From contig NC_043020.1 in NCBI RefSeq assembly GCF_006345805.1, positions 12,896,001 to 12,960,000 of the forward strand: a stretch of 64,000 nt of DNA, written 5' to 3'. The position numbers were made by a program, and so were the translations under genes. Origin of the DNA: Octopus sinensis. Its lineage: Eukaryota. Below the pieces are notes generated by a model, which worked only from the letters and a program-made list of their open reading frames with translations, had not been told where the DNA came from and did not search any database. Below, piece by piece: positions 39,977 to 43,909 of this stretch; the first letter of the stretch is position 1; the number at the start of each line of letters is the position of its first letter.

Positions 39977-40681
39977 CTAGTATTAGAAATGATTAGAACA
40001 CACTTACATGGCATCAGTACACAAAATGGTATTGCTACTGAATTCTTCAACCACCCTTTAACTGTAAAATTAAATTTCATGTTGTGACATATATTTGCCA
40101 TTTAAATATGGCTAACCCCTAAGGGTTGATGCTACTGTAGTTTGTAGCCCCAAGAGGACACCTCCTCCAGCTGGCTATAGACACACATCCTGTGCCCTAT
40201 TAGTATTTGCAAAGGGAAGCCATCCTTCCCGTCAATGGCTTCCCTTTGCAAATACTGATAGGGCACAGAAAGTGTGTCTAAAGCCAGCTGGAGGAGGTGT
40301 CCTCCTGGGGCTACAAACTACAGTAGCATCCACCCTTAGGGGTTAGCCATAATTAAATGGCAAATATACATCACGGTGTGTTGCAGCTACTGTTTATAAC
40401 TCTCTCTAAGATTTATTATTGCTAAATTTCATGGTTCTTCTAGAAATGATGTTAAAAATCTATCAGAAAATGGAATTGGAGTTTTCTGGTAGTCACATTG
40501 CCTCAATAAACATGATATGACTAAATATTAAAAAAAAAGTTTCAAACATGACATTCCTTGACCAAAGATTGGTATAAAAAAACAAAAAACATAATGAACA
40601 CTGGTTAACAGTGCTTCCAGTTAGTGAACACTGGTTATCAACAGTTTATAACTGGTGAACAGCAGTTAACGATAGTTCACG

Positions 40682-41522: not shown

Positions 41523-41657
41523 AAATATTCCGGGCAGTTATCTGGCCGATCCAATCTGCCTCCTGATCGGACATACTGTAAAACTTCTAAATTTGTTCGA
41601 GCTGGATAAGGTTGTTGACCATATGTGATGACCTCCCACATTAAAACACCAAACGAC
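41523..41657 (-). CDS. ROS1: ROS1-like kinase exon, subdomains IX-X (WSFGVLMWEVITYGQQPYPARTNLEVLQYVRSGGRLDRPDNCPEY); not in the ORF track
   Basis: CACAG acceptor, GTAAGA donor; 135 nt, phase 2 to 2; translated by hand. Confidence 0.95.
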
Positions 41658-42121
41658 CTGTGTTTAATAGACATACAAAGATATACCTGTAGAGTGGGAA
41701 TTAAATCATAGGTGAAAAAAATTAAACAGCCATTTCATACCTTTACATTTTCACAGGTAACAAATTAACAACAAACTTATTAAGAGACTCATTATTAGAT
41801 TTGTTAATAAACTTGTTAACAGATTGATTAAAGAGTTGGATTATGTACCATGTGGTATTTATTCCAGCTTTCTGTCTTCTGTGTCCAAGTCCTAAGAAGG
41901 TTGATTTTTTGCCTTTCATTCTTTAGGAGCTCATAAATATAGGCACAGGAGTGGCTGTGTGGTAAGTAGTTTGCTTACCAACCACATGGTTCTGGGTTCA
42001 GTCCCACTACATGGCACTTTGGGCAAGTGTCTTCTACCATAGACTCGGGCCTACCAAAGCCTTGTGAGTGAATTTGGTAGGCAGAAACTGAAAGAAGCCT
42101 GTCGTATATATTCATATATAT

Positions 42122-42132
<11 letters not shown>

Positions 42133-42152
<20 letters not shown>

Positions 42153-42900
42153 CAAATTGAGATAGGGGTTGTAAATGCAACCCGCTATGGGATAACGTAT
42201 ATCCAATATATTGCTAGTGAAGTACCCAACAAAGTTAATACATAAATGTTAATGATTGCGATGCAATCAATTCATTTACTGTATTATATGGGCAAAGGTA
42301 AAATGATTTACCACAAATTACTAATACAAGATAAGAAAATGGAGAAATACATCTAAATCAAATATCAATTACCAGATAATACTCAATCACATACTTTATT
42401 AAACCACCACATAAGAGACTGTAGGGTTAAATGTAAAAAGCAGAACAAATCAGTGTACATAAAGGAATGTACATAAAAAAATGTACATAAAAGAGTAATG
42501 TTGTATAATAATTAGAATATATATAAAAAAGAATATAAATACAAGTATTTATCTCATTCGATACCCTGACCCCAACGTTTGTTTTGTTCCCTCCTTTTCT
42601 CAACCTTATAGTGAATAAAGAAATACTCTCTCTCTCTCAAAATATTCCCTAGTATCTTTAGAAATAAACATGAAACAATATTTAAGTAAAGCAAAGGTCG
42701 TTACCACCTCGATGTAGTGTTGCTGCATAGAACAATGTTTCCACATTTTTTAACCCCAGGAGGACACCTCCAGCTGGTTAACAACACAATATCAGTGTCC
42801 AATATATTGAAAACAAGGGAGGGAACAACTCCCATCTATCAGCACCAAGACCAGTAGACCAGCTGGTTTCAGGGCCTCACCCTTCCTCAGTACTGGTACA
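42133..42900 (-). mobile_element. Penelope-like pseudo-LTR remnant carrying the hammerhead
   Basis: Non-coding unit abutting a (TA)n tract and ending at a hammerhead; 42754-42830 resembles the arms of the 40090-40368 hairpin; boundaries approximate. Confidence 0.5.
42850..42897 (-). ncRNA. Type I hammerhead ribozyme, intact core, sense strand of a ROS1 intron
   Basis: Minus strand: ACCAGTA-CTGAGGA-AGGG(TGAGG)CCCT-GAA-ACC(AGCT)GGT-C/TACTGGT; 7-bp stem I, 4-bp stem II, 3-bp stem III, GUC triplet; cut predicted between 42857 and 42856. Confidence 0.85.
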
Positions 42901-43012
42901 TCTGTCTGCTAGAAATGGCAGCCGTTTATCACAATTTGCAAAGCTTCTATTGCTCAAACTTGCCGTTTTAGAGGACAAATACAAAAATTAGTCTTTTTGA
43001 CCAACTACTTAC

Positions 43013-43308
43013 CATATATCTGACTGTGTAGTAAAAACTCCATCTACCAATGATTCTGGGGACATCCATCGAACAGGTAGCAAGCCTTCTCCTTCTTTAC
43101 GATAGTAGTCATTTTTGTATATATCTCTAGCGAGACCAAAGTCTCCTATTTTCACCACCATGTCCCTGGGGTTCTTTGATGACACTAAGCAGTTACGAGC
43201 AGCTAAGTCTCTATGTACAAAATGCATTTCTTCTAAATATTTACAGCCCCGGGAAACATGCACACATATTTTCATTAGATCCAATAATGTTAAAGACACT
43301 TGGCTTGT
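43013..43308 (-). CDS. ROS1: ROS1-like kinase exon, subdomains VI-IX ([38 protein letters not shown])
   Basis: AACAG acceptor, GTAAGT donor; 296 nt, phase 0 to 2; activation loop diagnostic of the ROS1/Sevenless family. Confidence 0.97.
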
Positions 43309-43909
43309 CTGTTAAAAAAGAAAAAGGAAAAGTGTTATTTAGAATTGTGTGAAGAAGAAGAAGGAGGAGGAGGAGGAGGAGGAGGAGGAGGAGAAGAAGA
43401 AGATAGAAGAAGAAGAAGAAAAAGAAGAAGGAGAATATAGAAGAAGATGGAGAAGATAGAGGAGGAGGAGGAGGAGGAGTAGGTGGAAGAAGAAGAAAAA
43501 AAGAAGAAGGAGAATATAGAAGAAGATGGAGAAGATAGAGGAGGAGGAGGTGGAGGAGTAGGAGGAAGAAGAAGAGGAGGTGGAGGAGGAAGAAGAAGAA
43601 GAAGAGGAGGTGGAGGAGGGAAAGCGGAGGTGGAGGGGGGAGGAGAAGAAGAAGAAGAAGAAGAAGAAGAAGAAGAAGAAGAAGAAGAAGAGTGAAGCTG
43701 ATGAAGCAGATAAGATGTCAAGACATATATGGGTTAGGAGTTGGAATTCAACAGTAGGGATTTTGGTGAGGTTCTAGAAAATCGCTAGGCTCCATATTGC
43801 TGAGGTTTATTTTGCTCTCAAAAACAAATACCGGACATTCTGCAAAATTCTTGTTTCAAAGAGAAGTCAACAGAGGAGATCACCTATTTTATACCAACTT
43901 GTGGTCGTG

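Follow-up and report, generated by a model that had tools for sequence, protein, structure and literature searches.

Position and structure of the hammerhead

The window (the whole 64-kb stretch of DNA that was analysed) carries part of a receptor tyrosine kinase gene on its minus strand, and a hammerhead motif was found in one of the introns of this gene. The preliminary description had assigned the gene to ROS1. When the exon with the HRD and DFG motifs was compared with solved structures, the best match was indeed ROS1 (157.7 bits, E 7e-46, for this one exon), and ALK scored lower (113.5 bits, E 4e-32). The features of the gene and of the motif were as follows.

43013..43308, minus strand: exon of the ROS1-like receptor tyrosine kinase (HRD, DFG and activation loop), from the translation, an AG acceptor and a GT donor
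41658..43012, minus strand: host intron of 1,355 nt, GT...AG
41523..41657, minus strand: next kinase exon; the kinase frame continues (W-SFGVLMWE) from 41657
42850..42897, minus strand: type I hammerhead of 48 nt; core, stems and GUC triplet read on this strand
42897-42891 with 42856-42850, minus strand: stem I, 7 bp
42890-42884, minus strand: core C3-U4-G5-A6-G7-G8-A9 (CUGAGGA)
42856..42857, minus strand: predicted self-cleavage site, 3' of C17 in hammerhead numbering

The motif had been described as having an intact core and three intact stems (7, 4 and 3 bp, with a GUC triplet), and reading the minus strand from 42897 to 42850 bore this out. Three helices surround the core and the structure is open at helix I, which is the type I topology. 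Stem II consisted of 4 bp (one A-U and three G-C pairs) with a 5-nt loop and was followed by the segment GAAA, with G12-A13-A14 present. Stem III consisted of 3 bp (A15.1-U16.1 and two C-G pairs) and is capped by the palindromic loop AGCU. All the required core positions (C3...A9, G12-A14, A15.1-U16.1 and H17) were found at 42890-42857. The 10.1-11.1 pair was A-U in the window copy and not the usual G-C, which is highly conserved but not obligatory. An A-U pair instead of G-C at this position would be expected to slow the hammerhead.

The position and orientation given earlier also held. The GT donor starts at 43012 and the motif lies 115 nt further, against a stated distance of about 115 nt, and the hammerhead and the ROS1-like pre-mRNA are on the same (minus) strand, that is, in the sense orientation. 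The cut predicted earlier between 42857 and 42856 agreed with C17 at 42857; it would fall 156 nt past the donor and 1,199 nt ahead of the intron end. The hammerhead descriptor matched a single locus in the 64-kb window and none of 30 dinucleotide shuffles, and the same search found no second hammerhead for dimerisation in the window. No hammerhead model of Rfam matched the window at the gathering score or at E<=10, nor did any match five other loci of the family described below. A weak Rfam match to ST7-OT4 in the window was rejected, as it was under its gathering score. A second CCAGCUGG occurs about 80 nt downstream, where stem III pairing would be possible and the core could not be built.

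Two other repeats were observed near the motif. A very high-copy short repeat occupies about 41930-42100 of the same intron, and it drew most of the 85,000-160,000 contigs per run in four runs at 80% likeness. At 40090-40375, about 1.2 kb past the next kinase exon, two arms of about 135 bp form an almost perfect foldback. It consists of two inverted fragments akin to the downstream part of the repeat superfamily that carries the hammerhead, without the hammerhead itself, and its RNA would form a long hairpin if transcribed.

A dispersed family of non-coding units carries the motif

The hammerhead is contained in a partial copy of a dispersed repeat, the boundaries of which were taken from genome matches.

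42688..42941, minus strand: partial monomer in the sense orientation of the host gene, lacking its 5' part and retaining 254 nt of the unit of about 350 nt

A search of the organism's own genome with the 351 nt around the motif gave at least 47 matches, 74-86% identical, over window positions 42941-42688 (best 40 of 497 candidates scored, a lower bound that favours well-preserved copies). With a longer family copy as the query, at least 73 matches were obtained (best 40 of 1,098 candidates scored), and this number is likewise a lower bound biased to well-preserved copies. From the matches, 51 stretches covering the hammerhead region were collected, a few of which were truncated. The core pattern matched 23 times genome-wide, compared with no match for the reversed control; three of the 23 matches belong to one recent segmental duplication. 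These three identical hammerheads, on C30, had been candidates for young insertions and were rejected as such for that reason. They lie in three 10-kb stretches (L123-L125, G000:C30), each with one hammerhead fragment, and L123 and L125 were 99% identical over 9.8 kb.

The unit is about 350 nt long and non-coding, has one hammerhead, and falls within the 150-450 bp size range of non-LTR retrozymes. Tandem copies were found as a dimer in locus L060 and as a trimer in locus L119, which belongs to a sister subfamily, whereas the window copy is a partial monomer. The spacing of successive units was 345 nt in L060, 342 and 355 nt in L119, 356 nt in L055 and 355 nt in L069, and no ORF was found between successive units in the tandem loci. 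The L119 trimer (1135-1920 of the locus; G000:C14, about 41.637 Mb) has two consecutive intact hammerhead cores 355 nt apart and, of the loci seen, is the most promising array from which one unit could be excised. A head-to-head inverted piece (5' inversion) was present in 15 of 45 loci. The 3' ends clustered in 39 of the 51 copies, either 197-207 nt (18 copies) or 245-271 nt (21 copies) past the start of helix I, and often abutted microsatellites; the 3' end of the window copy, at position 201, is inside the first cluster. Target-site duplications of non-LTR retrozymes, when present, exceed 4 bp; for the window copy, inspection by eye gave a 5-nt repeat only, which overlaps element-like sequence at both ends and is not a convincing duplication.

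The core of the hammerhead was variable in the family. Core position 7 was G, C, A or U in different copies, position 4 was C in 10 of 51, position 10.1 was A in 47 of 51, and position 11.1 was U in 34 and A in 15. One subfamily (L012, L027, L041, L051, L055 and others) commonly has an A.A mismatch at 10.1-11.1, often together with U4C. The sharing of these changes suggests a natural core variant that may have been propagated. A sister family of hammerhead repeats of about 355 nt (L128-L151) was also observed. A first look gave 1,624 candidates for it; the copies were 82-87% identical to the query, the palindrome of stem III is another one, and L131 contains a tandem dimer.

The carrier of the intact motif was classed as a dispersed non-LTR retrozyme, likely moved by the enzymes of Penelope-like elements (PLEs), because non-LTR retrozymes are defined as tandemly arranged short units that do not code for protein and have one type I hammerhead each (PMC7229834). 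According to a 2026 preprint, PLEs gave rise to the retrozymes of animals (10.64898/2026.07.22.740005). A different pedigree was weighed separately from the question of what the copy does to the gene: the 254 nt could be the remnant of a pseudo-LTR of an autonomous PLE and not a retrozyme unit. Truncation, 5' inversions, partial tandems, clustered 3' ends and a bias to microsatellite neighbours have been described as marks of PLEs (PMC8557442), and one family locus, L015, adjoins a fragment of a PLE reverse transcriptase (RT). However, the dimers and the trimer recur every 342-356 nt without an ORF, similarity to PLE proteins within 1.5 kb was found at only one distinct locus among L001-L076, the repeat was absent from 29 other loci fetched with the RT fragment next to L015, and helix I has the extended, bulged form of a canonical type I hammerhead, not the minimal PLE form. 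We therefore regard the pseudo-LTR pedigree as unlikely. In the loci examined, mostly within +/-1.5 kb, no ORF with RT and GIY-YIG was found between pseudo-LTRs of the repeat.

Two leads to a parent element were rejected. The PLE next to L015 belongs to a separate family without the hammerhead repeat, and for the sister family of about 355 nt, PLE protein similarity was found in 2 of 25 loci, neither of them in a pseudo-LTR arrangement. A near-intact Penelope-type element was observed at 263-2750 of locus L080, with an RT frame of 716 codons and a GIY-YIG piece after the stop. It is unrelated in sequence to the hammerhead repeat, and the simple hammerhead pattern had no match within this locus.

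Covariation of helix I

Across subfamilies, 22 aligned copies with the core pattern were compared. Both sides changed in 6 of 6 proximal and in 5 of 6 distal pairs of helix I; these counts are inflated by the relatedness of the copies, and the search pattern left no freedom to stems II and III. The covariation score of helix I was 0.32; it was matched by 0 of 500 shuffles, and slid controls gave 0.04-0.10. The covariation of helix I between subfamilies makes it likely that the ribozyme was of use to the element. Among 43 dispersed copies of nearer subfamilies, covariation did not exceed that of shuffles (190/500) and pairing was 86%; this comparison left out 8 of the 51 stretches, 7 of which were truncated, chimeric or partly deleted. 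The lack of covariation among dispersed copies is as expected of neutral decay after insertion.

Helix I is extended in the family and has a bulge starting with U, and loop 2 ends in A in 44 of 51 copies. A contact between the 5' U of loop 1 and the 3' A of loop 2 is reported to speed hammerheads at low Mg2+ (PMC3088659, PMC2632901).

Preservation and predicted folding of the window copy

The following features were relevant to the state of the window copy.

42844..42906, minus strand: extended helix I, with a UGU bulge at 42900-42898 and a distal 6-bp helix (42906-42901 with 42849-42844)
42875..42875, minus strand: last base of loop 2, G here and A in 44 of 51 copies; the sole change in the 48-nt motif from the subfamily majority
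42840..42895, minus strand: predicted competing 11-bp helix (42895-42885 with 42850-42840), present in minimum-energy folds

The core was kept in 12 of the 51 copies, and the core together with all three stems in 3, including the window copy. The window copy was the only exact match to the core pattern of its own subfamily, a pattern that was drawn from it. Compared with the majority of 16 copies of its subfamily, it had 1 change in the 48 sites of the motif and 23 changes in 188 non-CpG flank sites (p=0.025). The contrast gave p=0.032 against all copies and p=0.007-0.011 when CpG sites were kept; all of these values are nominal, as the motif had been picked for its intactness beforehand. Of 204 flank sites, 31 differed from the subfamily majority. 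The contrast was stronger in 4 of 46 other copies, which placed the window copy fifth of 47, and two of the four better-scoring copies have broken ribozymes (L056 with a deletion in stem II and L020 with a core change).

The peripheral part of the hammerhead (the distal helix I and the 3' A of loop 2) was degraded in the window copy. In its distal helix I, two positions are mismatched and two pairs are G-U, compared with 89% paired cells in the family. A change from A to G at the 3' end of loop 2 had a small effect in one viroid hammerhead (PMC2632901).

The active hammerhead fold was not the predicted minimum-energy fold. According to the prediction, the CUGAGG core is sequestered in the competing helix after 10 further nucleotides have been transcribed, and the predicted share of the active fold was at most 0.6% in nine contexts. 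When 13 other copies were folded likewise, the active fold had at most 1.1% in all 13; folding probability was rejected as a discriminator, since all copies score low. An evolved silencer in the cluster of substitutions adjacent on the 3' side was also considered and rejected, because several of these substitutions are of the CpG type or are subfamily differences found in other copies.

Contigs from runs with two other organism labels span the insertion. The X3 contig had 5 differences over 42654-43344 and the X6 contig had 1 difference over 42748-43344; at more than 99% identity, these contigs are too close to show constraint. For a contig of run X9 (organism D), the alignment begins at 42966 and continues upward, and the 36 letters preceding it did not align.

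Expected effect on the host gene

The preliminary description had left two readings side by side, a neutral passenger of a transposon and an effect on expression or splicing. The passenger part was supported, because the repeat family that contains the motif is dispersed and the copy in the window is truncated. The regulatory part was left with one weak point, the motif-versus-flank contrast at p=0.025, which is weak because the contrast is within the range of other copies, the tertiary module has decayed, and cut introns are reported to splice. The hammerhead is thus probably part of a truncated retrozyme copy that landed in the sense orientation in the intron of the ROS1-like gene and is decaying there as a passenger with little effect on the gene. 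What counts against this is that the window copy belongs to the intact class of 3 in 51 and that its motif is nominally better kept than its flanks.

By analogy with known retrozymes, an active tandem array would be transcribed and its hammerheads would cut the RNA to unit length. The unit-length RNAs would then be circularised and reverse-transcribed into new sites by a Penelope-like reverse transcriptase, and the 5'-truncated window copy would be a dead-end insertion of such copying. In Xenopus, about 42-44% of retrozyme copies are reported to overlap introns (bioRxiv 10.64898/2026.07.22.740005), and an intronic position is therefore common.

Monomer cleavage rates reported for other animals are about 0.8 per minute for coral, with full contacts, about 0.1 per minute for mussel, with contacts missing, and 6-22% in 1 h for axolotl (PMC7229834). 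The window hammerhead is a single monomer, its loop-loop module is weakened, and an alternative helix is predicted to compete with its core. As such it would be expected to cut slowly, at about 0.1 per minute or less, and for the most part only once the 1.2 kb leading to the 3' splice site have been transcribed. Transcription of 1.2 kb takes about 1 minute. At 0.1 per minute, cleavage ahead of the synthesis of the 3' splice site would affect no more than about a tenth of the transcripts, and a larger share if splicing takes several minutes. By comparison with introns studied elsewhere, splicing of the cut intron would still be expected in most cases: efficient splicing has been reported for introns that a hammerhead had cleaved, whereas an HDV ribozyme, which is faster, prevented it (PMC2995048, with reference to Dye 2006 and Fong 2009). 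Taken as a whole, a near-silent passenger is the reading that we hold to be likely.

Two other readings differ from this one in how much the copy would do. The monomer could be an active cutter under no selection, cleaving a measurable share of the nascent ROS1-like RNA and slightly lowering the output of the gene. The intact core and stems point in this direction, as do the two C-G pairs of stem III, which allow folding as a monomer, the rates reported for monomeric coral and mussel hammerheads, and the finding that the A-to-G change in loop 2 can be mild. In addition, before 42849 is transcribed, the predicted pairing probability of stem I was 0.4-0.8 in two of three contexts. Against this, the predicted probability of stem III was at most 0.10, the competing helix would take over within 10 nt, the distal helix I has decayed, and an A-U pair takes the place of G-C at 10.1-11.1; moreover, introns cut by hammerheads can still splice. 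Measurable cutting with an effect on output is accordingly judged to be rather improbable.

It is considerably less probable still that the hammerhead is a host-retained regulator like those of RECK, C10orf118 and CPEB3, kept by selection and tuning the ROS1 mRNA by racing splicing. The sense orientation, the motif-versus-flank contrast and the occupied insertion site in the X3 and X6 contigs, from runs with two other organism labels, are consistent with such a role, and the amniote cases are proposed to have arisen when hammerheads of retroelements were domesticated (PMC3088659, PMC6155905). A domestication caught underway, with the core kept, a loop contact loosened and a competing helix added to give a slow, tunable cutter in the middle of the kinase domain, would be its most specific form and is likewise very unlikely. 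The motif was selected for intactness and four of the 46 other copies show a stronger contrast, and the single change and the decay of the distal helix hit the very module that speeds cleavage at low Mg2+. The near identity of the other contigs leaves constraint invisible, and the whole 254-nt element persists, not the ribozyme alone. If such a role were true, the locus would be a first case among invertebrates comparable to the RECK and CPEB3 ribozymes, and a rare young ribozyme domestication with its mobile source still visible.

Comparison with known systems

The decaying passenger favoured here makes the locus itself ordinary, as a single dead-end insertion of a mobile repeat with a ribozyme. 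The family is of modest value, in that it combines inversions of the PLE type and fixed 3' ends with a unit that has no ORF; this combination fits the proposal that PLEs move animal retrozymes. The family also carries natural core variants (A-U or A.A at 10.1-11.1, and U4C). Searches of the main texts of papers found no cephalopod retrozyme described, and the main text of a 2026 repeat annotation of Octopus vulgaris (PMC13282606) contains none of the words ribozyme, hammerhead and retrozyme.

The hammerheads of PLE pseudo-LTRs, as described in PMC4209133, resemble the present family in their type I topology, 5' truncation, inversions and partial tandems, and in a palindromic stem III region that could pair two copies (here with a predicted duplex of -19.1 kcal/mol). 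They differ in that the PLE motif has a short helix I and a long helix II, whereas the present one has a long, bulged helix I and a helix II of 4 bp (PMC4209133). Furthermore, PLE pseudo-LTRs flank an RT-endonuclease ORF, and none was linked to the repeat in the loci examined.

The metazoan non-LTR retrozymes (350-390 bp in mussel and 330/350 bp in axolotl; PMC7229834) share with the family a unit length of about 350 nt, the lack of coding sequence, a single type I hammerhead per unit, a short stem III with a palindromic loop, the occurrence of monomers and tandems, and the presence of PLEs in the same genome. In contrast, the present family is old and decayed (74-86% identical), no long or homogeneous array of it was seen, and the self-cleavage and the linear and circular unit-length RNAs of known retrozymes are predictions for it. 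The 10.1-11.1 pair is G-C in known retrozymes and A-U or A.A in this family.

The conserved intronic ribozymes, namely the hammerheads of RECK and C10orf118 and the HDV-like ribozyme of CPEB3, resemble the window copy as self-cleaving motifs (predicted here) that lie in introns in the sense orientation and probably originated from retroelements. The CPEB3 ribozyme has a reported half-life of 2-3 min and lies 9.9 kb from the next exon (PMC10919898), compared with 1.2 kb for the window hammerhead. These ribozymes are conserved across mammals or amniotes and their cleavage has been shown, whereas the window copy is still contained in a mobile element that has many decaying paralogues.
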